A stretch of 64,000 nt of DNA from Bacteroidales bacterium (GTDB lineage Bacteria > Bacteroidota > Bacteroidia > Bacteroidales > P3): assembly GCA_016283745.1 (NCBI GenBank), contig JAEENM010000147.1:23079-87078 (forward strand), given 5' to 3'. Below are positions 3,801 to 56,801 of this stretch, one piece after another. Position numbers and translations under genes: made by a program. How positions within the stretch are numbered: the first letter of the stretch is position 1; every line of letters starts with the position of its first letter. The notes under the pieces are model-generated. The model saw only the letters and a list, made by a program, of their open reading frames with translations. It made no database searches and was not told the DNA's origin.

Positions 3801-6800
3801 CTCGTATTCGTCCCGTGCAATGGCTCTGTCGCGGTCGGTGAAATTGTCACCGTCGTCCTCATCGCGGAAATAAACCTCGCTGTCCTGCTCGTTGCTTTTT
3901 TGCACGGGGTAGGGCTTGGGGGTGCGGCGTTCGTATTCTGCCACATCTTCCGACACTTTGTCGGCGTCTATCGGCTGACCGTCGCTTACAGCGACACGAT
4001 GTCCGGCATTGAAGAGTTTATGCAGGTATCCGTCCAAATCCCTTTCGGGAAAACTAACCACGTACACACCGCCCTTTTCTTTAGTTTTTCTCAAAACGAT
4101 TCCCAGCAGTTTGGCAACTCTTTCTGCGTCCTCGCCATACATGCTGTAAAAACCTTTGCCGTCGGACAGCATCACCAAATCGTTGGGGTATCGCTCTTTG
4201 AGCTTTCGCCATGTTTGGTTTTCGGGAGTGCGCTTGCGTGTCTCCTCTTTCTCCATCTCCTTGCGCAGACGTGCGGCTTCCTCGTTGTTCAGCCCCATAT
4301 CCTCGATAATCTCCTCTTTCTCCTCGGCTTCGGATTTCTCCCACCAGCCACGACGTTCCTCTGCAGGTTGCTCAAAGTCGCCGACTTTCAGTTCCTCTTG
4401 CATAACAACATCTTCGGCTGTGCGCACAAAGTCGCGGAAACGTCCGGGGTATTTCAGTCTTTGGTAGCTGCTCCACAACACATAACGCAGTTCGTTCTCA
4501 CCGATAGAGCCGTAAAACCATCTCTTGATTTTAAGGCCTATCTTGCTCATCATCTCCCAAAACAGGTCTTTGATTTTCTGCCACGACCAAAATTGTTCTG
4601 GAAGTTCATCGGAGTTTCCGCCCAATGTGTCGTATCTCAAATCGCTTTCCATGCCCTCGGCCATTGTGGCAAGGTATTCCTCGGTGGCACGGCGGAAATC
4701 GTAGTTGTATTTGTCGCGGGCAAGTTTGGTTATCGCACGGCGTATCTCAGGCTCGCTGTGATCGTACACGTTGTCGAGGAAATCGTCGAAATGCTTGCCG
4801 AACATCTTACGCAGTCCGTAGTGTCCTGCTCCCTCGTGAAGTATGGTTCTGAGAACATCGCCACGGCTGTGGTGGTTGTCGAGGATAACGACGATTTTGT
4901 TTGTCTTGGGGTCGTACCAGCCTCTTTTTTTGCGGCGTTTTTCCCGTTCTTGTTCGGTAAGCCCTTGTACCTCGTCGATAGTTTCTACCACCTGCACATC
5001 GTCGGTGAGATTGAGTTTCGCCACTGCGTCGGCTATGAATTTGCGTGTGTAACGTCTGGAGCGTTCTATGAAAGCATCGTGTTGTTTCTTGGTGTAGCCG
5101 AAACGCCGTGCGGATGCAAGGCTCTCCTCGTAGGTGCTTAACCAAGGGTCGGGGGGTGTTGTGTCCTCGTCGCGGTAAACAGGGGTGTCGGTTTCTTCCT
5201 CGCTCGCTTCTTCCGCCTCGGTAACTTCTGTAGCAGCGTCCACTTCAGCGTCCACTTCGGCATATTTCTGTTCTTTTTCCGCCATCTCCTTTTTCATCAA
5301 CTCGGAATATTCATCAAATCTCCTATGGGCGGTTTCCAACTCTTTTGTAAACTCAAACGGTTTGCCCTCACGCGCTTTTACCTGCTTTAACGATTCTTGT
5401 GTTTTGGCAATAGACTGTTTTAGCTTTTCAACACGTTCTGCAAATTCTTTGCCACTTACAACATTTTCGAGAATATCCTCCAATCCCACACGGAGCAACG
5501 ACTGTTTAACCGGCGTGTCCTCCATGCCGAGTTCCTCGCAGTCGTATGTCATTTTACGACGTATGGCATTGAACAAATTGCCTTGTTCCGATGCGGTTTC
5601 GTAACTTAATTTTGTGTTGAAAGTAAAATTAAACCCTCCAACATTGATTTTTATAGTAAGTTTCTTTTCTGATGTTCCATAAGGATTTTCACGTATGGAG
5701 TTCTCCGCTTCTTTGACTTTCTTGTTAAACTCTTTGATAAAGTCGGCCAACGCCTCAATGTTGGGATATGTTTTTCCGTCAATAACAATTGCCGGGGATT
5801 GTCCTTTGTGTTGTTCTTTTGATTGTTCTACTTTTTGGCTTGCCTCCTCGGCTTGTTTCAGTCGTCTGTCGTAATTTCGTAACGTGCTTTCAAGCCTCGG
5901 TATTTCATTATGGCAATAAGTTTGGTCGGCTTCCCATTGTTTTTTCTTGTTTTCGTATTTCCGAACATCTTTTTCTGCTTGGTTTTTCAACATCGCATAC
6001 TCCGAACCTGACAATTGAGCCACAGTATCGCCGAAAACATCTTCCTCTTCTTCAATGGCGCGGTTTTCCATGCTGTTTTCAAGCATTTGTTTGCCATTCA
6101 TAATACTATCGGCTATCGCTCCTTTTGTTTTTAGTCGCTGATAAGCTGTTACATCAAGGCTATCCTCAACACCAAAACGGAGCACACGCACGGGTATTCC
6201 CATTTCTTTGTGTAAATTTCCCTGCCTCAAAATTCGGCCATTACGTTGTGTGTAGTCCATTGGACGGTTAGGCGCATCAAGATGTATGAGTGTGTGCAAA
6301 CGTTCCTGTATATTCACGCCAGTACCGAGTGTAAAGGTGCTACCCATTATAACACGCACCTCGCCGCGGTTTACCCTGTCAAATATATCAAGTTTTTTGT
6401 TGACACTCATTCCGCTTTTCATTACAACAATCTGCTCAGCAGGAATACCAGCCTCAATCAGTTTTTGTCGTATGTCCTCATAAAGATTGAAGCCGCTTCG
6501 CTTGTTTTGGTAATTGTCGGCAAATATCGCCACCGTGCCGTTATACGACTTGGTTTGTTCTAAACTATCCAATGTTTGGCGGACTGCCTCGTTGGTCTTG
6601 CTTTGAGGCTCGTCTATTGCATCGGAAACAACGAGGCGAGCATCAACAGCAGCAGCCTTGGCAATGCCGTACATTGTTAATGGGATATGGCGGTTTTTCT
6701 TTTTCTCTTTACCTGTCATATTGTCGAAGCGGTCAAGTTCTGCTTTCACATATTTCATTACCGCACGTAATGATTTTGTCTGTGGCAAATAAATATCCTT

Positions 6801-42647: not shown

Positions 42648-42820
42648 ATTTTCAGTGGCTTTTTTCTGATTTGTTGAAAACTTGGTGAGGTTAACAATAT
42701 ATTTTTCAAAAAAAAACTGTATTTTTGCAAAATACCTATTTGTGTAAAAATGTAATGCAGATAGAAAAATAGTTAGTAGAGTAGATTGTTACAATGTTGA
42801 TATAAAGATAATTAGCGCAC

Positions 42821-45385
42821 ATGGCTAAAAAGACCAAAATATCCCTTTCGCGCCTTGAGTCGTTTCTCAAGGCACAATGCGACCGTCTGCGTACCAGCAT
42901 GGATGCGGCGGAATACAAGAACTATATCATTGCGTTGCTTTTCCTGAAACGAATCAACGACCAGTTTGAAATTGACCGTATTGCGTTGAAAGATGAGCTG
43001 AAAAAGCAATATCCCAATGCCGCTGAAGCCGACATCGAAGCGGAATTGGACATTCCCGAAAAATATATCTGCTACGTGCCCGACAAGGCACGTTGGAAGT
43101 TCGTGCTCAACCTTGTGGATGACGAAGGTGAAAACATAAGTTACGCCGATGCCATTACCACGGCATTGGCCGAGGTGGAGAAATCCAACTCGGCACTGCT
43201 GTCGGGTGTGCTGAGCAAGACCAAGTTTAACGAACTGAACACCAAAGGTGAGCGTGTGCTGGACGAGGAGACGCTCAGCGCTTTGCTCAAGGATTTCAAC
43301 GACTTCCCGAAACTGCAGGACGAGAATTTTGAATTTCCCGACCTGCTTGGCGCGGCATACGAGTATCTGATAAAGTTCTTTGCTGAAAGCGCAGGTAAAA
43401 AGGCTGGCGAGTTCTATACGCCGTCCGAAGTAGTCTATCTGATGGGGCAGATTTTGCAACCAAAGGAGACCGACGAGATTTGTGACCCTACCGTGGGCTC
43501 GGGTGGTTTGCTGATTACGATGCATAACTACGTGGAAAACCGCTACGGAAGCGCCGAACGGCTTACCTTGCACGGACAGGAGAAGTTCGACAGTCCTTAT
43601 CAGATGTGCAAGATGAATATGATTTTCCACAATATACGTAATGCGCGCATCGAACAGGGTGACACGTTGCTGAATCCGAAACTGGTGACGGGCGGCACGC
43701 TCAACCAATACGACATTGTGGTGGCCAATCCGCCATTCTCGCAGAACTACACCACCGCCAATATGCAGTTCAAGGAGCGTTTCCAAAACTGGATGAGCAA
43801 GAAGAAACAAGCCGACTTTATGTTTGTGCAGCACATGATTTCTGTGCTGAAAAACAACGGTCGTATGGCTGTGGTGATGCCGCACGGCGTGCTTTTCCGT
43901 GGCGGCGAGGAGCAGAAAATGCGCCAACGCCTGATTACGGGCAGCGAAGGCCACCCATCTTGCATACTGGAATGTGTCATTGGGCTACCGCAAGGGCTGT
44001 TCTACGGAACGGGCATCCCGGCTTCGCTGCTGATTATCAACAAGGCAGGAGCCGCCGACCGACAAGGCGTCTTCTTCATCAATGCCGACCGAGAGTATAA
44101 GGAAGGCAAGAACCAGAACTCGCTGCGTCCCGAGGACATTGAGAAAATCAGCTACGTCTATCACAACAAGATTGAGATTGAAGGTTATAGCCGTATGGTG
44201 AGCCGCGAGATGCTGGAAGCCGAAGACTACAACTGCAATATCCGCCGCTATGTGGACAATTCGGAGCCGCCCACGCCGCAGGACGTAAAGGCGCACCTGC
44301 AAGGCGGAATTCCCGAAGCGGAAATATTGGCACTGAAAACAGAATTCGACTGCTATAAGGGTTTGCAGAACAAACTATTTACTGCGGCAACCGATGGTTA
44401 CGCCCATTTTGCGGATGCTGTAATGGAGAAAGCCGACATAAAAACCATTATCAGCGAAAGCAAAGGCAAACAGCAGGTTGCCGACGACTACCGCAAGGCG
44501 ATAGAAACCTTCTGGAAAGCCTCGGATGCCGATTTGAACAACCTGCACGGCGGCAGTCTGTTCGATTTCAACAAGAACCTCACCGACAGCTTTGTGTCGG
44601 CGTTGTCGAAATTGAAGGTCTTGGACCAGTATCAGGTGCGCGGCTCGTTCGCCCATTTCTCGGATATGCTGAAAAGCGACTTCCGCAGCGTGCAGTCGAG
44701 CGGATGGACGGCGGAGCTGATTCCCGATGATGAGCTCATTGCCAACGAGTTCCCCGAAGTTTTGGCCGACCTGAAACGGCTCGAAAACCGCCGCGACGAA
44801 CTCGATGCCAAGTTTGCCGAGATTGCCGAAATAGACCCTGAAGAGTGGGACGCTGAGCAATATGAAGTGATGCCCAAAAGTGTGATTTCGGACATTAAAG
44901 CAGAAATCAAAGAGTTGAAAGCCCAGAAACGAGAGTTGGCCAAACAGCAGAAAGCTTTGGAGAAACGTCGCAAGGCAGGTGCGGATGTGGCTAAAGAAAT
45001 GGCACAATGCACTGCCGACATTGCCGGACTCGACAGCCAGATTGCCGAAAAGGAAAACGGCATCGCCCACCATGTGGAACTCGAAAACGAGCTGAAGGAG
45101 AGCCGCCGACAGATACGCGAGATAGAGCGTAGCAAAGAGGCACTGGCCGACAAAGCCCGCGAGCAGATTTCGGACGACGATGCCCGCCGACTGATTACGC
45201 AGCGCTGGCTCGCCACCCTGCACGACAACATTGCCGTCTATCTCGAAGCTCACGCCCGACACTTGCAGCAAAACGTTGAACTGCTTCACGATAAGTATTC
45301 CGTGACGCTACGGAATCTGATTGAGGAGCGTGACGAGGCTACGAAAGAGTTAGACGGGTATTTGAAAGAATTGGGGTATATTTAA
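42821..45385 (+). CDS. hsdM: Type I R-M methyltransferase subunit HsdM with a long C-terminal coiled-coil extension (854 aa)
   Basis: Motif I ICDPTVGSGGLL, motif IV IVVANPPFSQNY, N-terminal HsdM-N-type helix bundle. The last ~350 aa are K/E/A/L-rich. Confidence 0.92.
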   Translation: MAKKTKISLSRLESFLKAQCDRLRTSMDAAEYKNYIIALLFLKRINDQFEIDRIALKDELKKQYPNAAEADIEAELDIPEKYICYVPDKARWKFVLNLVDDEGENISYADAITTALAEVEKSNSALLSGVLSKTKFNELNTKGERVLDEETLSALLKDFNDFPKLQDENFEFPDLLGAAYEYLIKFFAESAGKKAGEFYTPSEVVYLMGQILQPKETDEICDPTVGSGGLLITMHNYVENRYGSAERLTLHGQEKFDSPYQMCKMNMIFHNIRNARIEQGDTLLNPKLVTGGTLNQYDIVVANPPFSQNYTTANMQFKERFQNWMSKKKQADFMFVQHMISVLKNNGRMAVVMPHGVLFRGGEEQKMRQRLITGSEGHPSCILECVIGLPQGLFYGTGIPASLLIINKAGAADRQGVFFINADREYKEGKNQNSLRPEDIEKISYVYHNKIEIEGYSRMVSREMLEAEDYNCNIRRYVDNSEPPTPQDVKAHLQGGIPEAEILALKTEFDCYKGLQNKLFTAATDGYAHFADAVMEKADIKTIISESKGKQQVADDYRKAIETFWKASDADLNNLHGGSLFDFNKNLTDSFVSALSKLKVLDQYQVRGSFAHFSDMLKSDFRSVQSSGWTAELIPDDELIANEFPEVLADLKRLENRRDELDAKFAEIAEIDPEEWDAEQYEVMPKSVISDIKAEIKELKAQKRELAKQQKALEKRRKAGADVAKEMAQCTADIAGLDSQIAEKENGIAHHVELENELKESRRQIREIERSKEALADKAREQISDDDARRLITQRWLATLHDNIAVYLEAHARHLQQNVELLHDKYSVTLRNLIEERDEATKELDGYLKELGYI

Positions 45386-45400
45386 TGGACAATTGCAGTT

Positions 45401-46486
45401 ATGGATATAAACTATAAAAATTGGATAACAAGCATTGCCGCCAGATTCAAACAAGCGCAGATTAAGGCTGCTACGCAGGTGAATGCCGAAATGCTTCGGT
45501 TTTATTGGGAACTGGGGAAGGATGTTCTGCAGCTGTCGGAGACTTCGGCCTATGGTGACAAGGTTTTGCAGAAAATCAGCAAGGATTTGCAGTCTGAACT
45601 GCCAGATGTAAAATCTTTTTCACCGACCAATCTGCTCTATATGAAGAATTTTTATGCTCTTTATTATCAATACATTACAAACGCTCCACAACTTGTGGAG
45701 CAATCAGAAAACGAGTCGGCGCAAATCACTCCACAAGTTGTGGAGCAATCTCAAAAAATACAACTTGAAAAATTATTCAGAATACCGTGGGGACATCAAC
45801 GATATATAATCGACAAGTGCAAAGGTAACCCACGGAAAGCGATTTTCTATGCAAGCAAGACATTGGAAAACAACTGGTCGAGAGCTGTTTTGCTCAATTT
45901 TATGGATACCGACTTGTTTGAACGGCAAGGGAGGGCTATATCGAACTTTAAGAATCAGTTGCCCGCGCCTGACAGCGACTTGGCTCAAGAGATAACCAAA
46001 GACCCGTATAATTTTGATTTTCTTACCATACACGAGCGTTACAACGAAAAAGAACTAAAGGACGCGCTTATGGACAACATCACAAAATTTCTGCTCGAAC
46101 TGGGCAACGGCTTTGCCTTTGTGGGGCGTGAAGTGCGGATTATGGTCGGCAACAAGGAGAAGTTTATTGATATGCTCTTTTATAACATCAAGCTGCATTG
46201 CTATGTGGTGCTCGAAGTTAAGGTGACACCGTTTGAATCGGAGTATGCGGGACAGCTCGGCACCTATGTGGTGGCGGTGAATCATCAGCTCAAAGGCGAA
46301 AAAGATGCCGCCACCATTGGCATTTTGGTGTGCAAAGGCTTGGACAAGGTTGAAGCACAATATGCGTTGGAGTCGTCGAGCCAGCCCATAGGCATATCCG
46401 GCTATACGCTGTCGAAACTCATCCCCGAAAAATTCAAATCTTCGCTGCCAAGTATTGAGGAAATCGAAGATTCAATAAACAATTGA
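45401..46486 (+). CDS. YhcG/DUF1016-family PD-(D/E)xK nuclease-like protein (361 aa)
   Basis: N-terminal WELGKDV...YGDKVLQKISKDL and C-terminal FIDMLFYNIKLHCYVVLEVKVTPF...GQLGTYV are characteristic of DUF1016. Nested between hsdM and hsdS. Confidence 0.75.
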   Translation: MDINYKNWITSIAARFKQAQIKAATQVNAEMLRFYWELGKDVLQLSETSAYGDKVLQKISKDLQSELPDVKSFSPTNLLYMKNFYALYYQYITNAPQLVEQSENESAQITPQVVEQSQKIQLEKLFRIPWGHQRYIIDKCKGNPRKAIFYASKTLENNWSRAVLLNFMDTDLFERQGRAISNFKNQLPAPDSDLAQEITKDPYNFDFLTIHERYNEKELKDALMDNITKFLLELGNGFAFVGREVRIMVGNKEKFIDMLFYNIKLHCYVVLEVKVTPFESEYAGQLGTYVVAVNHQLKGEKDAATIGILVCKGLDKVEAQYALESSSQPIGISGYTLSKLIPEKFKSSLPSIEEIEDSINN

Positions 46487-46488
46487 CA

Positions 46489-47742
46489 ATGATGACCGAG
46501 CAAGAACATAATAATGTACAATGGAAGAAGGTTCGTTTTGGCGAGTTCTTTGATATGCTGCCGACAAACACATTGTCAAGGGATAAATTAAACAACCAAC
46601 AAGGTGAATATCAGAATGTTCATTACGGCGATGTTTTGATAAAGTACCCATTTTGTCTTGACTGTAACAACGCTGAAATCCCTTACATAAACGACGGTGT
46701 TAAGTTTAATATGGCAGAAGTTCGTGATGGTGATGTGATTTTTGCTGATACGGCGGAAGATGATACTGTTGGAAAGTGTGTTGAAGTGTTGAATGTAGGT
46801 GACAGAAAAATTGTCTCAGGTTTACACACATATTTTTGCAGACCAAGACATAAAATGGCATTGGGTTATTTGGGCTATTATTTGAATAGCAATCATTTCC
46901 ACAACCAATTGTTGCCTTATATAGCAGGTTCCAAGGTTTCGTCTGTAAACAGGACTTCCATTGCTCGCACTTTTATTTCCTATCCCGCCGACCTTTCCGC
47001 CCAGCGCCGCATAGCCGCCATACTCACTTCTGCCGACAAGGTGATAGCCGCCACGCAGAAAACCATAGCCAAATACAAGCAGATGAAGCAGGGAATGATG
47101 GAAGACCTTTTCAATGAACAATGTATAATGAACAATGTACAATGGAAGAAGGTGAGGTTGGGGGAATACATTGAATTGCAAGGAGGTTTTGCGTTTCAAA
47201 GTCGTGATTTTTCAGATTCAGGAGTTCCTTTAATACGAATAGGGGATATAACACCTAACGGACTAAATATTAGTAATTCTGCAAAACTGCCAATTGATTA
47301 TTTGACTGAATATGAAAATTTTGTATTGAATATTAATGATACTGTTATTGCAATGTCAGGCGCAACGACGGGAAAATGCACATTAGTTACTCAAAAAGAC
47401 ATACCTGCATTATTAAATCAACGGGTTGGACGGTTTAGGATTAAAAACAACAGTATTGATAAATTGTTCTTATACTATATTGTAAGTAATAACGTGTATC
47501 AGCAGAAATTACTATTAGATGCCGTTGGTGGAGCACAACCTAATGTAAGTCCAAAACAAATAGAATCGGTGTTTTGCAATGTTCCAATTCTATCGGACGG
47601 AAGACCAAATCTTACCGAGCAGCGCCGCATCGCCGCCATACTTTCGGACATAGATGCAAAAATAGCGGCGGAGGAAAAGGTGCTGGAGAAATATGAGAAG
47701 GCGAAGAAGGGGTTGATGGAGAGATTGTTGAACGAGAAATGA
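46489..47742 (+). CDS. hsdS: Type I R-M specificity subunit HsdS (two TRDs)
   Basis: Duplicated NNVQWKKVR(F/L)GE TRD starts and duplicated conserved helices (A/E)QRRIAAIL...KY(K/E)..K.G(M/L)ME.L(F/L). The ATG at 46489 is preferred over the TTG at 46483. Confidence 0.9.
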   Translation: MMTEQEHNNVQWKKVRFGEFFDMLPTNTLSRDKLNNQQGEYQNVHYGDVLIKYPFCLDCNNAEIPYINDGVKFNMAEVRDGDVIFADTAEDDTVGKCVEVLNVGDRKIVSGLHTYFCRPRHKMALGYLGYYLNSNHFHNQLLPYIAGSKVSSVNRTSIARTFISYPADLSAQRRIAAILTSADKVIAATQKTIAKYKQMKQGMMEDLFNEQCIMNNVQWKKVRLGEYIELQGGFAFQSRDFSDSGVPLIRIGDITPNGLNISNSAKLPIDYLTEYENFVLNINDTVIAMSGATTGKCTLVTQKDIPALLNQRVGRFRIKNNSIDKLFLYYIVSNNVYQQKLLLDAVGGAQPNVSPKQIESVFCNVPILSDGRPNLTEQRRIAAILSDIDAKIAAEEKVLEKYEKAKKGLMERLLNEK

Positions 47743-47776
47743 TAATTTATAATAAAACATAAAATAATTATTATAT

Positions 47777-50719
47777 ATGAATAAGAAGAAATTAGAAACG
47801 ACAGAGAGCAAAAGAATAGATAAGATAGAGGGCTTAACTATAGACAAATTAAATAAAACAATAGTTCAGCTTTTAAAGATTACAAATTTTGAAAATATAG
47901 TTGAGAACGAAAACTATATTATAGCAACAGAGAAATCATATTTTTCGGAAATAAAGCACGTGTTTGTTATTCCAACAATAAGGATGAGTGGGAGTATTGA
48001 TATCGATAGTGTAGTAAAATTAATTGAATCCATTCAGTCAAATGAATTGGCAAATGTCGTAACATTAGTATCGCAATTCCACATATCAAAGGGCTTTCGT
48101 GCGGCTTTTGAAGCGAAGTTGAACAATATTAAGTTTGATTATCTTGATAGAGATGTTTTGATTCAATATATCAATAAATATAATGATTCTTTTTGGAGAC
48201 ATGAAGATGTAGAGTTGCTTTCTTACGAAAAGTACTTCAAGGAACAATTAAATAACGAAAATCAACTTAAAAAGCTTCATCTGTCCAATGATAAATATCA
48301 AAAAATAATCAACTTATATATACAACCGACACTCTCAACAAATGAAGAAGAAGCCAAGACGCACACATACCATAGAAAAAGAGTTGATGTCGAAGGCGTG
48401 TTGAATGAGCCATCGTGCGTATTTCTAAGTGGAATTTCTGGCTCAGGGAAAACAACATTGTTAAAGAGGATTGGAGTAAAACTATTAGAGAATAATGATA
48501 CTAAAGACGGTAAGTTGAATCTACCCATCTTTATCACATCTTCTGATTTACTAGAACACAATCGTAATATCAATGATGTAATTCTGTCAAAAACAAAAAA
48601 CCATCTCCCCTATGATAAATTGCATGAATTATCAGATAAATACGATGTTAGTGTTCTTGTTGACAGTATAGACGAGTTTGAAGAAAAAGACAGAATGGAA
48701 ATATTGCGCGTTCTATTAAACAACTATACTAATAAAGGTATGAAGTTTTACATCGGTTCTCGTGGGACATCTATTGAAGATGAAAGATTACCAATAAAAG
48801 GGAAAATTAGAGAATATTACATCAATAGCTTCAATCAAGAACAGATTAAAAGATATGTGCAAGCACTTTTGCCTAATGAAGATAAGGCCAACTCGTTAAT
48901 GGATTCTTTACGAGAAAATAAAATTCTTGAGAAATTGCCAATTACACCTTTGACGCTTTCTCTCATAACTATTATATACGATGAGCAAGATTATGAAATC
49001 CCTGCAACTGTTACTGATATATACAAACAATTTAACAATATTATAAACGGTAGGAATATTGTTTCAACAAAATTTGAATTTGTTGATATTAGTTTTAGGG
49101 AAAGGGTTTTGTCAATCTACGGGTTATATCTTCTTGAACAACCAAATCATGAGCCCATGAAACGAAAAGAGTTTGTCTCGTTTTACAAAGAGTTCTTCAA
49201 AGGAAAATCTTTAACATTCGAATACGAACAAATTGACGATGTGTTGGAGTATATCCTTAATAACACTGGAATACTATACCTTAAAGAGGATAATACTGTG
49301 CGTTTTGCTCATGATTCATATATGGAGTTCTATGCAGCAGTTGAAATTTTTAATTATCATAGAGAGAAAGAAGATGATATTGTTTCAAACTTCTTTGATT
49401 TAATGTGGCAGAATGTTGCCATATTCTATGGTGGAATGACAAAAGATATGTGCCTTTTTGCAGAGAAGATAAACAATAAATTAAAAAGTGCCGCTAAATT
49501 TATTGAATACATATCTGGCATACAAGGTGCGGGTTATTTATTACAAGCACTTTATATGACTGACAATGAAAAAAGAAAGGATGTTATTCTAACTGCTCTT
49601 GATTTGGTTTTGGAAACAAATGAGTTTTTTAAAAAAATGACCACAATCAATGAGACAATGTTCCAAAACTACAGATTACCAATTGTCCAACTGCTAAATT
49701 TTCTCCATTTCTACGAGATGTTTAATTCATTAACTCTACGAGAACCGTTGACAATGACTTTTGAGCAATTGCGAACAGAATACGAATTTATGTTGGAGGA
49801 TAAAAACAGTATTGACACAACCAAGCTTCCTGCTTTAGGATATAAACTTATAGAATTAGCATTTACTTTGGATTCCAAGCGATTAAATGATCAAAGAGCT
49901 TTAAATTATGTTGTTGAACAAAATGAGTTAATGCGAGATAGTAATCTATATTCATTGATGAATCTATGCCTAGATTTTTTAAATAAAACAAATTATAAAG
50001 AATTAAGGCAAAGTGTATCAAAGAGTGCTTCAAAAATACAACCTCTACTCAATGTGCTTTCCGATGATCCTACCGGAAAAATACGTTTCTCTCCAATGGA
50101 TAGTGTTCATCCGAATCGTAAAGTAAAATTATTTGTTGAAGGGAAATCAGATGCCATAATACTCGAACATGCTTATATGACTCTTACAGGAGGGCAATCC
50201 CCATATTGGAACATAGCTATGGCTACAAGTAACGGAGAAACCGGTTCGTCTATAGAGGTTACTAAAGCCATTGAAACAGCTCTAAATTATAAAAACGAGT
50301 ATGATTTCATTATTGGCTTATTCGATCATGATGCTGCTGGTTTGAAAGAGTTCTGTAGATTAAACAGTGATTCTTATGAACAGATAGAAAAACGGTGTAT
50401 AAAACGAAGAAAAAATAGTAATATATTTGTAATGTGTCTGCCGATTCCAGCAGAAATGATTCAATATGAGCAAGAAAGACAGGAGTTCAATTTCTTTGAA
50501 ATAGAGCATTACTTTGGGCATGATTATCTGAAACGAAACAATATGATAAAAGAGAAACAAACTTTAGATAATGTATATGAAATTAAAGATAAAAATAAAA
50601 TACCATTTGCATATGATATTTGCAAGGAGGTGACCCCAGAAATATTTAAATTTTTTGTGGATTTATTTAAAAAAATAGATGAAATAACAGGAAGACAGAT
50701 TGATTATTTGATTAATTAA
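47777..50719 (+). CDS. STAND/NACHT NTPase with a C-terminal TOPRIM-like domain and an N-terminal Mrr-like region (980 aa)
   Basis: Walker A FLSGISGSGKTTLLKRIG, Walker B VSVLVDSIDEFEE, NACHT-type LPITPLTLSLI and FAHDSYMEFYAA. C-terminal KLFVEGKSDAIILEHAY + GLFDHDAAG gives the TOPRIM Glu and DxD motifs. Visibly AT-rich compared with the hsd genes. Confidence 0.8.
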   Translation: MNKKKLETTESKRIDKIEGLTIDKLNKTIVQLLKITNFENIVENENYIIATEKSYFSEIKHVFVIPTIRMSGSIDIDSVVKLIESIQSNELANVVTLVSQFHISKGFRAAFEAKLNNIKFDYLDRDVLIQYINKYNDSFWRHEDVELLSYEKYFKEQLNNENQLKKLHLSNDKYQKIINLYIQPTLSTNEEEAKTHTYHRKRVDVEGVLNEPSCVFLSGISGSGKTTLLKRIGVKLLENNDTKDGKLNLPIFITSSDLLEHNRNINDVILSKTKNHLPYDKLHELSDKYDVSVLVDSIDEFEEKDRMEILRVLLNNYTNKGMKFYIGSRGTSIEDERLPIKGKIREYYINSFNQEQIKRYVQALLPNEDKANSLMDSLRENKILEKLPITPLTLSLITIIYDEQDYEIPATVTDIYKQFNNIINGRNIVSTKFEFVDISFRERVLSIYGLYLLEQPNHEPMKRKEFVSFYKEFFKGKSLTFEYEQIDDVLEYILNNTGILYLKEDNTVRFAHDSYMEFYAAVEIFNYHREKEDDIVSNFFDLMWQNVAIFYGGMTKDMCLFAEKINNKLKSAAKFIEYISGIQGAGYLLQALYMTDNEKRKDVILTALDLVLETNEFFKKMTTINETMFQNYRLPIVQLLNFLHFYEMFNSLTLREPLTMTFEQLRTEYEFMLEDKNSIDTTKLPALGYKLIELAFTLDSKRLNDQRALNYVVEQNELMRDSNLYSLMNLCLDFLNKTNYKELRQSVSKSASKIQPLLNVLSDDPTGKIRFSPMDSVHPNRKVKLFVEGKSDAIILEHAYMTLTGGQSPYWNIAMATSNGETGSSIEVTKAIETALNYKNEYDFIIGLFDHDAAGLKEFCRLNSDSYEQIEKRCIKRRKNSNIFVMCLPIPAEMIQYEQERQEFNFFEIEHYFGHDYLKRNNMIKEKQTLDNVYEIKDKNKIPFAYDICKEVTPEIFKFFVDLFKKIDEITGRQIDYLIN

Positions 50720-50734
50720 TAAATAGTATCTTAG

Positions 50735-50881
50735 CACAAACAACCCGCCAAGAAATTAATTGTAAATTGTTCATTGTAAATTGTTAATTGATTATGAGTG
50801 AATATACCAACGTTGAGCATCCTTTTCTCGAAAAGCTGCGCGAGATAGGCTGGCAAGTGATAGACAAAGGCAGCGGCGGCG
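50735..50881 (+). repeat. Copy A of the hsdR upstream region + first 29 codons
   Basis: Manual alignment to 52805-52944. From the ATG, 4 mismatches over 87 nt. The upstream part differs by about one heptamer indel plus a few substitutions. Confidence 0.9.
50756..50790 (+). repeat. Heptamer-phased tract (TWMATTG x5) immediately upstream of the hsdR-remnant ATG
   Basis: ttaattg|taaattg|ttcattg|taaattg|ttaattg. Confidence 0.8.
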
Positions 50882-50892
50882 GATATTTTTGA
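50794..50892 (+). pseudogene. Truncated hsdR 5' remnant (MSEYTNVEHPFLEKLREIGWQVIDKGSGGGYF*)
   Basis: Identical over the first 15 aa and near-identical afterwards to the true HsdR N-terminus at 52858. Diverges after GSGG and stops. Confidence 0.85.
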
Positions 50893-50975
50893 AACATTCA
50901 GTTGCAAGTTCTTCTGAAAAATCGTATTTTTGCATAATCGTAAAATAGAATTGAAATAAATAAAATATATTGATA

Positions 50976-52262
50976 ATGAGCAGAATAAAGGTTAGGAACT
51001 TCGGGCCCATCCGCGAAGGGTTCATCGATAACGACGGATGGTTAGACATTGGAAAAGTCACCGTTTTCATCGGAGACCAAGCCTCCGGCAAAAGCACCGT
51101 GGAGAAATTGGTTTCGTTGTTCACATGGATAGAAAAAAGTATAGTTCGTAATTTGATTTCACCGGATCAATTAAATGTCGATATTTTTAAGAATTTATGT
51201 GCTCAGCAGGATATTATCGAATATTTTGCCAAAAACACATTTTTGTCCTTTAAGGGAGAGGCATACGACTTTGAATACGATGAGGTAAAAAAATCTTTTA
51301 AATCTAGAATCAACAATACGGGATACAAGAGCTATGTTTTGCCCAAAATTCAATATGTATCAGCGGCAAGGAATCTGCTTACAATTTTGTATAACATTTC
51401 ATTACAGAATATTGTTGACAAAAATGGCAATGTTATAGATTTGTCTTCAAATATCCCGTTTATGGTCAGGGTTTTGAATATTGAATACTTGAAAGCGTTG
51501 GAAGAATATGCGAAAAATGGATTTGCTTTGCCAATAAACGACACAAGTGTGTACTATCAGAATCATAACACATATATTATGGCAAAAGGCAATCGGGTAT
51601 CAATGGCAGCGGCTTCAAGTGGCATACAGTCTATAACGCCATTGCTGCTTGTCAGTCATTCTTTGTCGAATGAAGTAAGGAGAGACATATATGAGAAAGT
51701 ACAAACGATAGATAATAATCTTAAAAACAGAATAGAGGCTGATTTTGCAAAAGAAAAATCGAGTTTGTACGATAAATTCAAACAGATTAGTTCTTTTGGA
51801 AGGGGAATTTTGACAGACAAAGAAGACGAAAAATTGTTGGATACGAAATTGAAAAAATACATTCCTTCATCTTTTATCAACATTGTTGAAGAACCAGAGC
51901 AGAACTTGTTTCCCAACTCTCAGCAAAAGGTAATAAATAGATTATTGGAGTACAACAATGCCGTAAAAGAAAATAAACTTATACTTTCCACTCATTCGCC
52001 CTATACTTTGACGGCACTTAACAATTCTATTTTAGCAGAAGAAGTGTTTGAAAAAACAGGAAAGTCAATTGATGCTTACAGCCCGGAAAAGATGGTCTCT
52101 TTTGCTGATGTTGCCGCCTACCAATTAGAGGATGGCAAAATAATCAGCATAAAAGATGAAGAAACCAGACTGATAAATGCAGATGCCATTGATGGTTGCT
52201 CTGCAAAAATAAATTCCGATTTTGATGACTTGTTAGATTTGTTGCCCGAAAACGATGAATAG
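50976..52262 (+). CDS. ABC/SMC-type (AAA_15/21-like) ATPase, candidate defence ATPase (428 aa from ATG)
   Basis: IKVRNFGPI lead-in, Walker A FIGDQASGKST, signature-like AASSGIQS, Walker B FINIVEEPEQNLFP, H-loop LILSTHSP. AT-rich. Confidence 0.8.
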   Translation: MSRIKVRNFGPIREGFIDNDGWLDIGKVTVFIGDQASGKSTVEKLVSLFTWIEKSIVRNLISPDQLNVDIFKNLCAQQDIIEYFAKNTFLSFKGEAYDFEYDEVKKSFKSRINNTGYKSYVLPKIQYVSAARNLLTILYNISLQNIVDKNGNVIDLSSNIPFMVRVLNIEYLKALEEYAKNGFALPINDTSVYYQNHNTYIMAKGNRVSMAAASSGIQSITPLLLVSHSLSNEVRRDIYEKVQTIDNNLKNRIEADFAKEKSSLYDKFKQISSFGRGILTDKEDEKLLDTKLKKYIPSSFINIVEEPEQNLFPNSQQKVINRLLEYNNAVKENKLILSTHSPYTLTALNNSILAEEVFEKTGKSIDAYSPEKMVSFADVAAYQLEDGKIISIKDEETRLINADAIDGCSAKINSDFDDLLDLLPENDE

Positions 52263-52264
52263 CG

Positions 52265-52732
52265 ATGAATGTTCAAAATAATGGTATAAAAATCACGGCT
52301 CCCTCATTTTCAACCGACGTTGAACTAAGCAATGACAAACGCCAGTCTTTTGTGTTGAAAGGCGAGCATAAACGGAAATGGACAGCGGAAAATCCAAATA
52401 AACATATTGGGGTTTGTTTGAAAATAGATGATGCATTGATAGCAACAGAGCAGCAGAATAAGTGCGACCGCGGGCTTTTGTTGGATGATAATCGTTTGTA
52501 TTTGGTCGAACTCAAGGGCGATGATTATAAAACCGCAGTAATCCAACTGATTGAAACAAAGAAATACTTTTTGTCCAATTATTCAGATTATGATTTGGCC
52601 TTTCATGCAAGAATTGTAGGAAGGTCTTTCCCGAAAGCGACAACAGAACTTCAAAAGGCTAAGAAAGATTTAAAGAAGAACTTTGGCAATAATTTTGCAC
52701 TATTTGAGAATAAAAGATCAGAGAAAATATGA
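52265..52732 (+). CDS. Small PD-(D/E)xK-like protein partnered with the ATPase (155 aa)
   Basis: KCDRGLLLDDNRLYLVELKGDDYKTAVIQL gives a D...E-x-K arrangement. The start is 3 nt after the ATPase stop. Confidence 0.6.
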   Translation: MNVQNNGIKITAPSFSTDVELSNDKRQSFVLKGEHKRKWTAENPNKHIGVCLKIDDALIATEQQNKCDRGLLLDDNRLYLVELKGDDYKTAVIQLIETKKYFLSNYSDYDLAFHARIVGRSFPKATTELQKAKKDLKKNFGNNFALFENKRSEKI

Positions 52733-52769
52733 GTGAATACGCGAACGTTTAGCATCCTATTTTTTTCTC
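52729..52769 (+). repeat. Copy C: degenerate ~40-bp remnant of the hsdR 5' end
   Basis: atgagtgaatacgcgaacgtttagcatcctattttttt versus atgagtgaatatacaaatgttgagcatccttttctc. Contains an in-frame TAG. Its ATG overlaps the TGA of the 155-aa gene. Confidence 0.7.
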
Positions 52770-52804
52770 AAATTCTTAATTCCATCGAAAGAGTTTGTTT
52801 TTTA

Positions 52805-52944
52805 CACAAACAACCCGACAAGCAAAATAATTGTTAATTGTAAATTGTTAATTGATTATGAGTGAATATACAAATGTTGAGCATCCTTTTCTCGAAAAGC
52901 TGTGCGAGATAGGTTGGCAAGTGATAGACAAAGGCAGCGGCGGC
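52805..52944 (+). repeat. Copy B: authentic hsdR upstream region + 5' end
   Basis: See copy A. Confidence 0.9.
52827..52854 (+). repeat. Heptamer-phased tract (WTAATTG x4) immediately upstream of the hsdR ATG
   Basis: ataattg|ttaattg|taaattg|ttaattg. Confidence 0.8.
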
Positions 52945-55900
52945 ATTCCGCAAGACCCCGCCGAGAGTATGCGCACGTCGTTCAGCGAAGTGGTGCTCAA
53001 AGATGAGTTCTTCAAGAAGTTGGGCGAACTCAACCCGTGGATAACCGCGGAGCAAAAGGAATACTGCTACCGCAAAATCACCGACATTGACAAGCCGCTA
53101 ACCGATGCCAACCGCGAGATTCACAATATGCTGCTCGAAGGCATCCACCTGCGCACCAAAAACGAACAGACGGGCGAGGAAAACCCAACAGCCAAAGTCA
53201 TCAACTTCGACAGATACGAGAAAAACTCTTTCATTGCCATCAACCAGTTCCGTGTAGATACCAACAACACCAAACCCTTCATCATCCCCGACATTGTCTG
53301 CTTTGTCAACGGTCTGCCGCTAGTGGTGATTGAGTGCAAAGACGAGAATGTCTCGGAGCCGATGAGCGAAGCCTTCGACCAGATAAAACGCTACGCCAAC
53401 CAGCGTGTCATCGACGACCCTTTTGCCGACGGCATATCGGAGGGCTGCGAGCGGCTGTTCCATACCAACCTGTTCAGCGTCATCACCCGTGGCGTTGAGG
53501 CGCGATGCGGCACCATCTCGGCCGATTTCGATTTTTATCTCAATTGGAAAGACATATTTCCCGAAGAGTACGCCGAAGGCACCAACATCAACCCCGCCGA
53601 ACGACAGGAAATCCTTATCAAAGGAATGTTCAACCACGAGATTCTGATTGACATCTACCGCAACTTCACGCTCTATATGCAGAAAGGCGACAACACGGTG
53701 AAAATCATCTGCCGCTATCAGCAATATCGCGCCGTGGGCAAAATGATTCGCCGCTTACAGAGCGGCACCGACTGGCGTAGCCGAAGCGGCGTCATCTGGC
53801 ACACGCAGGGCAGCGGCAAGTCGCTCACAATGGTGTTTCTGGTCAAGAAGATGCGCCGCATTGCTGACCTTCGCGACTACCGCATACTGATGGTGGTTGA
53901 CCGCCACGACTTGGAAGACCAGTTGGCCGAAACCGCCGAATACACAGGCGAACTGCGCCACGACCCGACGACCAAGAAGGTTCAGAACATTGTGGAGAAC
54001 CGTCAGGCGCTGGTGAAACTCGAAGGCGACACCGCCGACCTTAACTTGGTGATGATTCACAAGTTCGGCGAAAACAAGGAGTACTCGCTCGAATCGCTGA
54101 TAAATGCAGGCATTGTGCCGCAATACGAGTCGTTCCCCGTCATCAACGAGAGCCCGAAGATTCTGGTGCTGATAGACGAGGCGCACCGCAGCCAGGGCGG
54201 CGAGATGGGCGACAACCTGTTCCAGGCTTTCCCCAATGCGGCACGCATCGGTTTCACTGGCACACCGCTCATTACGCCGCGCCATAAGGCAACCACCTGC
54301 GAGCGTTTCGGTCAGCAGGCGGGAGTTTTCATCGATACATACAAGATGAACGATTCGGTGCGCGACAACGCCACCGTTGATATAAAATACATCGGTCGCA
54401 AAAGCGACGACAGCATACCGTTCAAAGACGAGTTCGATGCTGAATTTGAACGCACATTCGCCAACCGCTCGCAAGAGGAGCGAATTGAGATTCAGAAACG
54501 TTACGGCACAATGATTGCCTACCTTGAAAGTGCCGACCGAGTGATGAAAAACGCCCGCGATATGCTTGCGCATTACGTTTCGGAAATCCTTCCAAACGGA
54601 TTCAAAGCGCAGGTTGTGGCATCGTCAATTATGGCGGCAGTGCGTTACAAAATCGCTCTCGAAAAGTTGATTCCTGAATTTATTGCGGCAGAAGAACAAA
54701 AGTCGGACGACGAGCGCGACAATGTGATGTTGCAACGCCTGCGCATGTTGAAGGTTCGGGCTGTGGTGTCGAGTGCGGGCAACAACGAGGCCGCAATTAT
54801 TCGCACTGCCCGAATAGAAGCCGACACCGACGATGCCATCACCAACTTCAAAAAGGATTTCGATGCAGAGAATCCGCTTTCGGGCATTGGCATCCTTTGT
54901 GTCTGCGACCGCCTTCTGACGGGTTTCGATGCGCCAGTTGAGCAGGTGATGTATCTCGACAAAAACCTGTCGGAGCACAACCTGATGCAGGCCATCACCC
55001 GTGTGAACCGCACCAAGAAGAACAAAAAGCACGGCATTGTGGTCGATTACTTCGGCGTCACCAAAAACCTGCACAAGGCTCTGGGCATCTACAATGCCGA
55101 CGATGAGAAAGCGGCAAAAGAGGATTTGGCAGAGTTCGAAACCTATTTTTCCGCCATCGAAAAAGAGATCCCCGAGTTGGAGATGCGTTACAACAAAATT
55201 GTTCAGCGATTCGAGAACGAGGGCATTGCCGACATCAACGATTTTCTTGAGCAACGCACAAGCAGGGAGCGCGAAAAGGAACTTTGTGAAAAGATTGTGG
55301 AAGTGGCCGAAAGCATCAAATTCCGTTCGGAGTTGGATGCCTTGTTCCGCCTGTTCTTCGACATCTTCGACCTGCTTTTCAACGAGCCTGAAACACGCAG
55401 CCGCTATTATGTCCCCGCCAAACGAATGGCCTACATTGTGGCACTCATACGTTGGCACTATAAAGATGAGACGCTCGATTTGAAATGGGCGAGCGAGAAA
55501 GTGCGCCGCCTGCTCGACAAATACCTGAAATCAGATGGTGTTCGCGAGACAGTTCCCGAAGTGGATATCTTGTCGGATGATTTCCCAAAGATTGTTAGCA
55601 ATATGTACGGCAATCCGCAGACTGTGGCTTCGGCTATGGAGCACCAAATCCGCGACCGTATCATTATCAAATTGGGTGAAGGACGGAACACCGCACTTTA
55701 TCAGAAGTTCAAAGACCGAATGGAAAACATTCTCACCACATACGCTGGCAACTGGTCGGAGATGATAAGCGAATTGGAGCGTCTGCGTCAGGAATTGGCA
55801 AATCCGAAACCCGCTGTGGTGTCGGAGGAAAAAGAGCCCTTCTACGACAAACTCTGCCAATGCGCAGGCGTGGATTTTGAGGATCGCCACGACAATATCA

Positions 55901-56118
55901 TCGCTGTCACTGATCAGGTGATGACGCTGATATATGCTGCTATGTCCATTCCGAACATCTGGACAAAACCAACCAACGTGAACGATTTGCGAGGAAAGAT
56001 TGGCACAACATTGCGATTCTCGGGCATTCAGCAACTGAAAGAGAACAGCGAATCCATTGTTACAGAATTGATTAAGTTGGCAAAAAGTAATGAGAGCGTT
56101 TTGAGGCAATTCGTATGA
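52858..56118 (+). CDS. hsdR: Type I R-M restriction/helicase subunit HsdR (1086 aa from ATG)
   Basis: N-terminal nuclease region IPDIVCFVNGLPLVVIECKD (PD..E-x-K), helicase motif I WHTQGSGKSLTM, motif II LVLIDEAHRSQ, motif III GFTGTP, motif VI QAITRVNR. Confidence 0.95.
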   Translation: MSEYTNVEHPFLEKLCEIGWQVIDKGSGGIPQDPAESMRTSFSEVVLKDEFFKKLGELNPWITAEQKEYCYRKITDIDKPLTDANREIHNMLLEGIHLRTKNEQTGEENPTAKVINFDRYEKNSFIAINQFRVDTNNTKPFIIPDIVCFVNGLPLVVIECKDENVSEPMSEAFDQIKRYANQRVIDDPFADGISEGCERLFHTNLFSVITRGVEARCGTISADFDFYLNWKDIFPEEYAEGTNINPAERQEILIKGMFNHEILIDIYRNFTLYMQKGDNTVKIICRYQQYRAVGKMIRRLQSGTDWRSRSGVIWHTQGSGKSLTMVFLVKKMRRIADLRDYRILMVVDRHDLEDQLAETAEYTGELRHDPTTKKVQNIVENRQALVKLEGDTADLNLVMIHKFGENKEYSLESLINAGIVPQYESFPVINESPKILVLIDEAHRSQGGEMGDNLFQAFPNAARIGFTGTPLITPRHKATTCERFGQQAGVFIDTYKMNDSVRDNATVDIKYIGRKSDDSIPFKDEFDAEFERTFANRSQEERIEIQKRYGTMIAYLESADRVMKNARDMLAHYVSEILPNGFKAQVVASSIMAAVRYKIALEKLIPEFIAAEEQKSDDERDNVMLQRLRMLKVRAVVSSAGNNEAAIIRTARIEADTDDAITNFKKDFDAENPLSGIGILCVCDRLLTGFDAPVEQVMYLDKNLSEHNLMQAITRVNRTKKNKKHGIVVDYFGVTKNLHKALGIYNADDEKAAKEDLAEFETYFSAIEKEIPELEMRYNKIVQRFENEGIADINDFLEQRTSREREKELCEKIVEVAESIKFRSELDALFRLFFDIFDLLFNEPETRSRYYVPAKRMAYIVALIRWHYKDETLDLKWASEKVRRLLDKYLKSDGVRETVPEVDILSDDFPKIVSNMYGNPQTVASAMEHQIRDRIIIKLGEGRNTALYQKFKDRMENILTTYAGNWSEMISELERLRQELANPKPAVVSEEKEPFYDKLCQCAGVDFEDRHDNIIAVTDQVMTLIYAAMSIPNIWTKPTNVNDLRGKIGTTLRFSGIQQLKENSESIVTELIKLAKSNESVLRQFV

Positions 56119-56801
56119 AAATAGGCGATTTGGAAATAGAAATAAAACGCTCAAAGCGGCGAAAAACCATCACCGTTAATATCGAACGTGACGGCAGCGT
56201 GAACGCCGTAGCTCCTTTCGATTGCGACGATGAGACCATCCGCAAAGAGCTTGAGGCAAGGGAGTATCTGATTTGCAAGCATGTGGCTAACAGAATAGCT
56301 GTGAACAAGGCGTATGTAAACCGCACTTTTGTCAACGGTCAGGCTTTCCTTTTTATGGGAGAATCATACAATTTGCATATTTCCGAAACGGCTAGGAAAT
56401 CTCTGGAAATTGTTGACGACAAATTTGTTTTAAGTGAGAAGTGTTTGCCTAAGGCCAAAGAAACCTTCATCAATTTTTACAAAAAACAGGGATTACCTTA
56501 TTTACGAGAGCGGGTTGCCTATTTTTCCAAATTGGTAGGTCGCGAACCCGTTTCCATCCGAATTATAGAATTAGGCTCGCATTGGGCCTCCTGTACCCCT
56601 CGACAAACTATTAATTTCCATTGGAAGTGTATCATGGCCAAGCCGATGATTATCGATTATCTGATAGTTCACGAACTGACGCACCTCAAATATCCCCAGC
56701 ATACCCGACAGTTTTGGGATGCGGTTTTTTCGGTGATGCCTAATTATAAAGAGTGCGAGGATTGGCTGCACAATTATGGAGTGACGCTGGAGCTTATTTG
56801 A
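56115..56801 (+). CDS. YgjP/DUF45-type zinc metallopeptidase (228 aa)
   Basis: HELTHLKYPQHTRQFW (HExxH) near the C-terminus. 4-nt overlap with hsdR. This family commonly follows hsdR. Confidence 0.8.
   Translation: MKIGDLEIEIKRSKRRKTITVNIERDGSVNAVAPFDCDDETIRKELEAREYLICKHVANRIAVNKAYVNRTFVNGQAFLFMGESYNLHISETARKSLEIVDDKFVLSEKCLPKAKETFINFYKKQGLPYLRERVAYFSKLVGREPVSIRIIELGSHWASCTPRQTINFHWKCIMAKPMIIDYLIVHELTHLKYPQHTRQFWDAVFSVMPNYKECEDWLHNYGVTLELI

Follow-up and report, generated by a model that had tools for sequence, protein, structure and literature searches.

How do defence genes come to lie within the loci of other defence systems? Payne et al. (bioRxiv 10.1101/2024.01.29.577857) described defence genes embedded in type I restriction-modification (R-M), BREX, DISARM and Hma loci, PrrC in EcoprrI being an example alongside theirs, and such embedding now serves the discovery of new immune systems; its origin was left open in that work, which mentions a 'genomic sink' idea and in which the words 'recombination' and 'remnant' are absent. 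The question is raised in concrete form by a type I R-M locus in a 64,000-nucleotide stretch of a Bacteroidales assembly (GCA_016283745.1, contig JAEENM010000147.1, positions 23,079 to 87,078; hereafter the window), where the start of hsdR occurs three times, as copies A, C and B, around a two-gene cassette lying between hsdS and hsdR. Our analysis makes it likely that copies A and C are fossil hsdR 5' ends bordering co-directional defence cassettes stacked between hsdS and hsdR, and that these cassettes are exchanged by general homologous recombination. Related gut Bacteroidales probably reuse the fossils as homology arms, by which cassettes would be swapped, added and perhaps lost without a dedicated recombinase.

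The window locus runs hsdM, DUF1016, hsdS, NACHT, copy A, PDC-M29A/B, copy C, hsdR (with copy B as its start) and ygjP. The portion from copy A to the end of hsdR is made up as follows; coordinates are those of the window, and L-numbers (L002-L084) are labels of related loci compared with it.

50727-50793, + strand: a −7-like box TATCTTAG (50727-50734), then the 5' untranslated region (UTR) of copy A with an (ATTGTWM)n tract at 50759-50790, from sequence and alignment to copy B.
50794-50880, + strand: copy A, fossil hsdR codons 1-29, in a 32-amino-acid (aa) open reading frame (ORF) that continues to 50892; tblastn match to HsdR aa 1-29.
50881-50975, + strand: linker J1, the fossil/cassette junction and cassette promoter, with TAnnTTTG boxes at 50884-50891 and 50925-50932; same junction and linker in L009, L033 and L035.
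50976-52262, + strand: PDC-M29A, an ABC/AAA_15-type ATPase of 428 aa (PADLOC PDC-M29A, 4.1e-86, full length; Pfam AAA_15/AAA_21).
52265-52732, + strand: PDC-M29B, its 155-aa partner, a putative PD-(D/E)xK nuclease by motif (PADLOC PDC-M29B, 6.4e-8; family alignment).
52729-52761, + strand: copy C, a 33-nt hsdR 5' fossil with its ATG over the M29B stop and a premature TAG at codon 8 (repeat search; 33-nt profile).
52762-52804, + strand: a 43-nt spacer with a degenerate cassette-type promoter remnant TTCCATCGAAAGAGTTTGTTTTTTAC at about 52780-52806, resembling TTCCATCGAAAAATTGTATTTTTGC upstream of M29A-like genes in L004, L006 and L070.
52805-52857, + strand: the copy B 5'UTR with a heptamer tract at 52830-52854 (sequence; alignment).
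52858-56118, + strand: intact hsdR, 1086 aa, GC about 52% (HSDR_N, SWI2_SNF2, ResIII and T1R_D3).

Copies A (50735-50880) and B (52805-52944) are direct repeats that share the 5'UTR with its 7-nt tract, the ATG and 87 coding nucleotides. A repeat search finds a core of 116 nt without gaps (96% identity) and, upstream of it, a block of 21 nt (90%). By blastn, 146 nt align with 140 nt at 91% identity, the heptamer tract containing an indel of 6 nt; over the 87 nt that begin with the ATG, exactly 4 positions are mismatched. Copy A departs from B at 50881 and then ends the 32-aa ORF (MSEYTNVEHPFLEKLREIGWQVIDKGSGGGYF and a stop, 50794-50892). On all of these points, namely the shared tract, ATG and first 29 codons, the four differences, and the divergence of A followed by a stop, the first-pass annotation of this stretch was right. 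Copy C, which it put at about 40 bp, is real and begins on the stop of M29B, its ATG (52729) overlapping the TGA (ATGA), but it is shorter than claimed: the repeat match at 52728-52761 is 85% identical to A, and the fossil proper spans 33 nt (52729-52761), with 4 mismatches to a 33-nt profile built from the hsdR starts of the family. This profile matches A, B and C and nothing else in the window; as controls, neither the minus strands nor five shuffles of 445 kb gave a match to it. The description of three hsdR promoter copies did not hold, since copy C lacks any upstream or promoter sequence and homology between A and B begins at −59, directly downstream of the −7-like box. The duplicated part is therefore essentially the 5'UTR and 29 codons, with no whole promoter. 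In L007, L012, L058 and L076, the M29B stop overlaps the ATG of an intact hsdR, an arrangement which, judged from these sequences, would be the ancestral state of window copy C.

Related loci were collected in two ways. A strict DNA pattern for A, B and C had no match in species-representative genomes because it is too allele-specific, and a protein-anchored search and a degenerate (wobble) DNA pattern were used instead. The former gave 21 loci in species-representative genomes, nearly all of them Bacteroidales metagenome-assembled genomes (MAGs) from rumen, caecum or horse gut with an HsdR 78-98% identical to that of the window, and the latter gave 46 further metagenome stretches; all comparators are short-read metagenome or MAG assemblies.

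Across these type I loci of rumen and hindgut Bacteroidales, 43 hsdR 5' fossils of 24 to about 90 nt were catalogued, every one on the + strand and between hsdS and hsdR. They are present in 12 of the 15 informative species-level genomes (degenerate ones also in L011 and L014) and in 18 metagenome contigs, and a single locus, L017, carries four. The hsdS-hsdR interval of related loci holds one to six co-directional cargo genes with the short fragments between them: a fossil starts 2-40 nt past the stop of the preceding cargo gene, or overlaps that stop, and lies 25-110 nt upstream of the next gene, just before that gene's promoter. The cargo is drawn from defence-type families, including DUF1016/YhcG, SLFN-AlbA_2, ThsB-TIR, TIR-STAND, SEFIR, SLOG-TIR and AbiH, as well as DUF3800, AAA_13, ABC-3C, GmrSD, MBL-fold, PDDEXK_4, HNH_5 and HATPase_c. 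The array genes and the 8 kb around the window locus contain no integrase, transposase or recombinase domain, and the neighbours over that distance are housekeeping genes. The first-pass annotation had dealt with the arrival of the window cassette; recombination at the hsdR 5' end stands, and the process is one of multi-cassette arrays across the clade rather than one insertion.

The origin of the fossils appears to be mixed. Of 30 fossils compared, 7 are closest to the hsdR of their own locus and the rest are closest, up to identity, to hsdR alleles of other genomes, which suggests that most were imported with cassettes and that others arose in situ. An exceptionally conserved hsdR 5' end was considered as well and rejected: mean pairwise identity over the first 90 nt is 0.84 as compared with 0.79 overall, a high value that is no outlier, and it is 0.76 after nt 90. 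Phage vehicles were likewise rejected, the hsdR-start pattern being absent from viral contigs. Sixteen distant loci from other phyla, Treponema and Chlorobiaceae among the sources, encode an HsdR of about 50% identity; they hold cargo too, but none contains a fossil of its own hsdR, and among species-representative genomes multiple pattern matches per contig occur in Bacteroidales only, so that the phenomenon is clade-specific and not general to embedded cargo.

The cassettes also bring their own promoters. The Bacteroidetes −7 motif TAnnTTTG lies within 85 nt after the fossil in 22 of 36 cases, as compared with 4.9% of control windows (p about 3e-20), and all M29A-like genes have one common promoter that is preceded by at least 8 different fossil truncations. 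In the window, the M29 cassette has a conserved Bacteroidetes-type promoter of its own, TATTTTTG at 50925-50932, as predicted from the motif, and therefore would not depend on a duplicated hsdR promoter, behind which the first-pass annotation had placed it.

The fossils sort into about 25 junction classes with differing truncation points, and in the multi-member classes the same junction has different neighbours both upstream and downstream:

J1 (window copy A, L035, L033, L009): upstream NACHT, HNH_5, HATPase_c and AAA_13, respectively; downstream M29 in the window, L035 and L033, and in L009 an ATPase pair only 36% identical.
J2 (L002, L018, L077, L003, L066): upstream four different families; downstream DUF1016 or SLFN.
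J3 (L010, L015, L049): upstream three different families; downstream SLFN or an ATPase pair.
J6 (L008, L048, L058, L074, L084): upstream several families; downstream SLFN or an M29A-like ATPase.

Since the same junctions occur with varied neighbours, the conserved unit is the linker, made up of the junction with the 3' part of the fossil before it and the promoter after it. NACHT in the window, HNH_5 in L035 and HATPase_c in L033 all occupy one slot, bounded by the hsdS 3' end and copy A. The alignment of related hsdS-hsdR intervals thus bore out the idea that different cargoes adjoin the same repeats.

Empty and filled configurations bounded by the hsdR 5' repeat, which the same idea called for, exist in related loci as four pairs: L021/L017, L051/L003, L007/window C and L014/L017. 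In L021, a HARE-HTH gene is followed by the UTR and an intact hsdR; L017 has the same HARE-HTH gene, UTR and hsdR nt 1-78, then 4.8 kb with three cassettes, and then again UTR and hsdR. In the second pair, the order hsdS, IVP gene, UTR, hsdR of L051 corresponds in L003 to IVP, UTR, hsdR nt 1-42, an SLFN cassette and hsdR. In the last, DUF1016, UTR and hsdR of L014 are matched in L017 by DUF1016, an identical 70-nt UTR, hsdR nt 1-32, a GmrSD cassette and hsdR. The IVP gene (L051 1262-1621; L003 7744-8103) encodes a 119-aa '23S rRNA-intervening-sequence protein', a four-helix bundle; the gene is placed directly between hsdS and hsdR and represents the minimal cargo state of the family.

Copy A of the window is itself a mosaic. 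Beyond the A junction, identity between the window and L035 is about 98%. Between −59 and about +45, copy A of the window has the alleles AGT, TAT, CAT and AAG, which are otherwise specific to the window-type copy B and which the copies A of L035 and L033 lack. The left ~105 nt of copy A thus have window-B-type alleles, and its right end and junction are those common to other genomes. Recombination inside the hsdR 5' end would leave this exact pattern. Together with the shared junctions and the empty/filled pairs, it favours the proposal that the hsdR 5' end served as a homology anchor and left direct repeats behind. The mosaic, along with breakpoints inside fossils, suggests that the exchange would depend on host homologous recombination, following uptake or transfer of DNA.

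A mechanism consistent with these observations could work as follows. A cassette would comprise its own promoter, one to three defence genes and the hsdR start that lay downstream when the next cassette came. A new boundary would arise when DNA with the order promoter-cargo-hsdR enters, undergoes homologous recombination at its right-hand hsdR and is joined on its left inside the first ~30-90 nt of the resident hsdR; this left join would be illegitimate the first time, either a homology-facilitated illegitimate join or a local duplication. Where a fossil already exists, fossil, junction and promoter would act as a portable linker, and a cassette preceded by a fossil would have homology on both sides to any related locus in which some gene X precedes hsdR, and could there be stacked without loss of X, swapped or deleted. 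Recombination would be of the RecA type, between copies of the hsdR 5' end, and the hsdS 3' end or promoter linkers would provide the second arm. The M29B gene of the window would once have abutted hsdR directly, leaving relic C; an hsdR with its promoter and UTR would then have replaced the M29B-hsdR junction; and the block of fossil A, M29, C and hsdR would have joined a resident NACHT-UTR-hsdR through recombination in the hsdR 5' end. What the sequences show directly is the anatomy of the loci, its recurrence, the common junctions, the empty/filled pairs and the mosaic; that RecA is required, that first joins were illegitimate, how the DNA entered and that cassettes are lost we infer. More tentatively, and at somewhat less than even chances, the process could amount to an integrase-free, integron-like accretion, with the linker as a self-propagating, portable homology arm and with cassettes stacked, swapped and dropped across the species of a gut community.

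Several other explanations deserve consideration. Variable truncation, the lack of a recombinase and the mosaic breakpoints argue for general over site-specific recombination. An integron-like system, in which a recombinase encoded elsewhere inserts at the hsdR 5' end or its tract and duplicates the site, could account for the strictly recurrent placement and orientation, for a peculiar heptamer tract limited to the hsd locus and for the confinement of every join to about 90 nt from the ATG. Such a system nevertheless seems very unlikely in view of truncation points that span 24 to about 90 nt over about 25 classes, of the many fossils without a tract, of a promoter as the sole motif common to cassette ends, and of cargo and flanks (8 kb) devoid of integrase or transposase genes. 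A purely local origin, by in-situ tandem duplication of cargo and hsdR start with later divergence and no exchange between genomes through the repeat, has in its favour that copy B ranks 1 of 44 in similarity to window copy A and that such events naturally give joins of a gene's 5' fragment to an upstream promoter. The A junction and linker are, however, also found in L009, L033 and L035 with other hsdR alleles and upstream genes, the copies A of L035 and L033 are unlike their own copy B, and no array has two tandem copies of one cassette, all of which make the local origin unlikely, even though tandem duplication may have produced some of the first joins.

It could also be that the duplicated UTR and leader are kept by selection as a regulatory module, for a leader peptide, translational coupling or hsdR-type co-regulation. 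Copy A does still have its UTR, tract and ATG with an ORF of 32 aa left open, terminators are absent from the array, and upstream stops often overlap the fossil ATG; on the other hand, fossil ORFs conserve neither length nor sequence (copy C and L002 have early stops), most fossils have no UTR, and the cassettes come with their own promoter. We regard such selection as improbable, and it is compatible with the exchange of cassettes by homologous recombination rather than exclusive of it. That the repeats are an artefact, with chimeric contigs made at a conserved sequence, is scarcely credible. Every dataset is a short-read assembly, and Logan contigs do break inside copy A, as a true repeat would also give. 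Yet the window architecture, including the 32-aa ORF, was assembled identically in at least four independent metagenome assemblies (GCA_016648415.1, GCA_016648615.1, GCA_016295045.1 and GCA_016295295.1), the block of A, M29, C, B and hsdR recurs in ENA and Logan assemblies, the L033/L034 variant was found in two ENA assemblies, and the junctions have unique sequences that were met again in other studies and host species, so that the duplication can be taken as genuine.

Exchange of cassettes by homologous recombination remains our preferred explanation, and several points weigh against it. Each of the empty/filled pairs could reflect a gain or a loss of cassettes. The window cassette was not seen in an excised form, as all NACHT contigs with enough flank carry M29, and the precise loss of the cassette by recombination between A and B, which had been predicted for this locus, is plausible and was not observed. 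Nor was an empty NACHT-hsdR form of the window lineage found, the long contigs all having M29 and the short Logan contigs ending in copy A. A single linear double crossover does not account for the allele pattern of A and B, nor does a single Campbell event, and an extra gene-conversion step is needed. The confinement of about 25 independent joins to the first ~90 nt of hsdR calls for a reason of its own; candidates are microhomology at the GC-rich GGCAGCGGCGG, instability of longer repeats and the drop in conservation past nt 90. Several joins do group at GGCAGCGGCGG (nt 77-88), but searches recovered no parent sequence for the cassette side. Finally, given the short-read basis, joins across a repeat common to co-resident strains could be chimeric, a concern offset by the recurrence of the junctions themselves in independent assemblies.

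The remaining features of the window locus are the following.

42821-45385, + strand: hsdM, type I methyltransferase (Pfam N6_Mtase 1e-97, HsdM_N).
45401-46486, + strand: DUF1016/YhcG PD-(D/E)xK protein, PADLOC candidate PDC-S02, between hsdM and hsdS (Pfam YhcG_C 7e-58; PDC-S02 2e-152).
46483-47742, + strand: hsdS (Pfam Methylase_S), with reverse-orientation (CAATGWA)n tracts at 46473-46490 and 47112-47143, one before each target-recognition domain (TRD).
47777-50719, + strand: cassette 1, a 980-aa NACHT/STAND NTPase (Pfam NACHT 2e-10), GC about 31%.
56115-56801, + strand: ygjP-like metallopeptidase, its start overlapping the hsdR stop (Pfam YgjP-like 3e-48).

HsdM, an HsdS with two TRDs and an HsdR with HSDR_N and a superfamily 2 (SF2) motor, all by Pfam, identify the locus as type I R-M. 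Across 42800-56800, the cargo has a GC content of 30-38%, as have the hsdS TRDs, versus 50-54% for hsdM and hsdR, with transitions at gene boundaries. No terminator-like hairpin was detected across 47600-53100 (the sigma-70 promoter calls of the same scan are uninformative for Bacteroidetes), and no Rfam family matched in 42.0-57.5 kb. The adjoining M29 proteins match the PADLOC models PDC-M29A and PDC-M29B, and the pair is a candidate for an anti-phage role through 'guilt by embedding' only. Of the earlier description as an 'ATPase-nuclease' cassette, the ATPase is supported by PADLOC and Pfam; the 155-aa partner is a putative nuclease by the D...E-x-K motif alone, which is invariant in the family alignment. 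This protein had no match in Pfam, NCBIfam or a PDB sequence search, and its single-sequence AlphaFold2 model, with a predicted local distance difference test score (pLDDT) of 33, is unusable. In GCA_016295295.1, the NACHT gene (L028 2005-4947, equal to window 47777-50719) is called as two ORFs of 536 and 438 aa; as only one mismatch separates L028 from the window over 6.7 kb of DNA, the cargo gene seems to have acquired a nonsense mutation recently.

Variation within the family is not confined to the cassettes. Two DUF1016/YhcG paralogues, about 25% identical to each other, occur: the first (window 45401-46486) is fixed between hsdM and hsdS, and the second behaves as a mobile cassette beside hsdR (L002 3674-4747, L014 8897-9976, L016, L017, L018). 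The hsdS of the window and that of L051 differ by a swap of TRD2: TRD1 is 97% identical (window 46552-47166, L051 1-615), the two TRD2 sequences are unrelated, and homology returns with the 3' conserved region (window 47616-47756, L051 1035-1176), which places the left edge of the swap at the central tract or conserved region. There is a second cargo slot between hsdR and ygjP, empty in the window, where the genes overlap by 4 nt, and elsewhere filled with inserts of 0.4-1.3 kb (L002 8039-9334, L004, L008 13273-14568, L033 7049-8344 with an AAA_14/DUF4143 gene, L003, L005, L017, L069); in the loci with an insert, the hsdR 3' end is altered, and no ygjP 5' fossil was found in this slot. In L076 (2017-5268), the hsdR frame appears to stop early, at 4623, while homology runs to 5268 and the M29 cassette is kept, and this hsdR may be a pseudogene.

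The 7-nt periodic tract is confined to the hsd locus (9 matches versus 0.08 expected). In the form (ATTGTWM)n, it lies upstream of hsdR and of some fossils and cassettes, at window 50759-50790 and 52830-52854 and also at L003 13250-13281 and L007 3711-3735; in reverse, as (CAATGWA)n, it is found after hsdR and at three places in hsdS, namely the start, the centre (coding, 'NEQCIMNNVQ') and the end. The number of heptamer units varies from 3 to 6 among close relatives, and the J2 switch between DUF1016 and SLFN cargo falls within a heptamer tract. A translation leader, a slippage-prone element and recombination microhomology are candidate functions, and the tract, which flanks the hsdS TRDs and precedes hsdR, may be part of the same modular-recombination design.

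If true, the integron-like accretion would offer a concrete mechanism for the embedding of defence genes in other defence systems, and the arrays suggest how a community could share a pool of immune genes without mobile-element machinery. The arrays provide a readable record, with one fossil per accretion and junctions common to several species, and this record makes the origin of embedding testable through recA dependence, breakpoints within fossils and linkers, and cassette loss by recombination between fossil and hsdR. Short 5' fragments of a downstream anchor gene could further be used as an inexpensive bioinformatic sign by which to locate cassette boundaries and new defence genes in uncultured Bacteroidales. 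In the literature that was searched, neither remnants of hsdR 5' ends nor stacked fossils of an anchor gene nor the stacking of cassettes through linkers had been described.

Each of several known systems shares some features with these arrays. The Campylobacter rlo genes are embedded defence genes in type I loci, and with such loci the arrays have in common co-oriented defence cargo between hsd genes; the window cargo PDC-M29 and PDC-S02 comes from the catalogue of Payne et al. What differs is that a sequence trace of embedding is visible here, in the form of stacked hsdR 5' fossils and shared linkers. Integron arrays are similar in their one-directional, promoter-proximal cassettes, their repeated separator element and their shuffling between genomes. 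In contrast, no intI tyrosine recombinase adjoins these arrays (array genes and 8 kb around the window locus), each cassette has a promoter, and in place of attC sites the boundaries are colinear pieces of the downstream gene hsdR, of variable length from 24 to about 90 nt, as judged from sequence with folding not tested; the arrays therefore do not belong to the integrons, and the mechanism would be general homologous plus illegitimate recombination. Tandem integrative islands with a duplicated gene-end att site likewise leave partial target-gene ends between inserts and restore the gene at the far end, but their repeats are of fixed length and integrase-dependent, unlike the variable repeat ends, about 25 junction classes and lack of an integrase seen here.

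Homology-facilitated illegitimate recombination, a term still current and reportedly described by de Vries and Wackernagel in 2002 and by Prudhomme and colleagues in 2002, could supply the first fossil, through an hsdR anchor and one illegitimate join, possibly at GC-rich microhomology. Classic events of this kind usually delete recipient DNA, whereas here the start of the anchor would be duplicated. The minimal mobile elements (MMEs) of Neisseria and the core-flanked defence hotspots of E. coli and Vibrio are exchanged by homologous recombination. The arrays resemble them in having conserved flanks, alternative cargo in one slot among relatives and no mobility genes, and exchange would likewise proceed through flanking homology. 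They differ in that the anchor is the first ~90 nt of a gene, duplicated with each accretion, which gives rise to stacking in place of mere replacement and to a readable fossil record. We therefore class the hsdS-hsdR arrays as a variant of homologous-recombination-driven cassette exchange at a defence hotspot.

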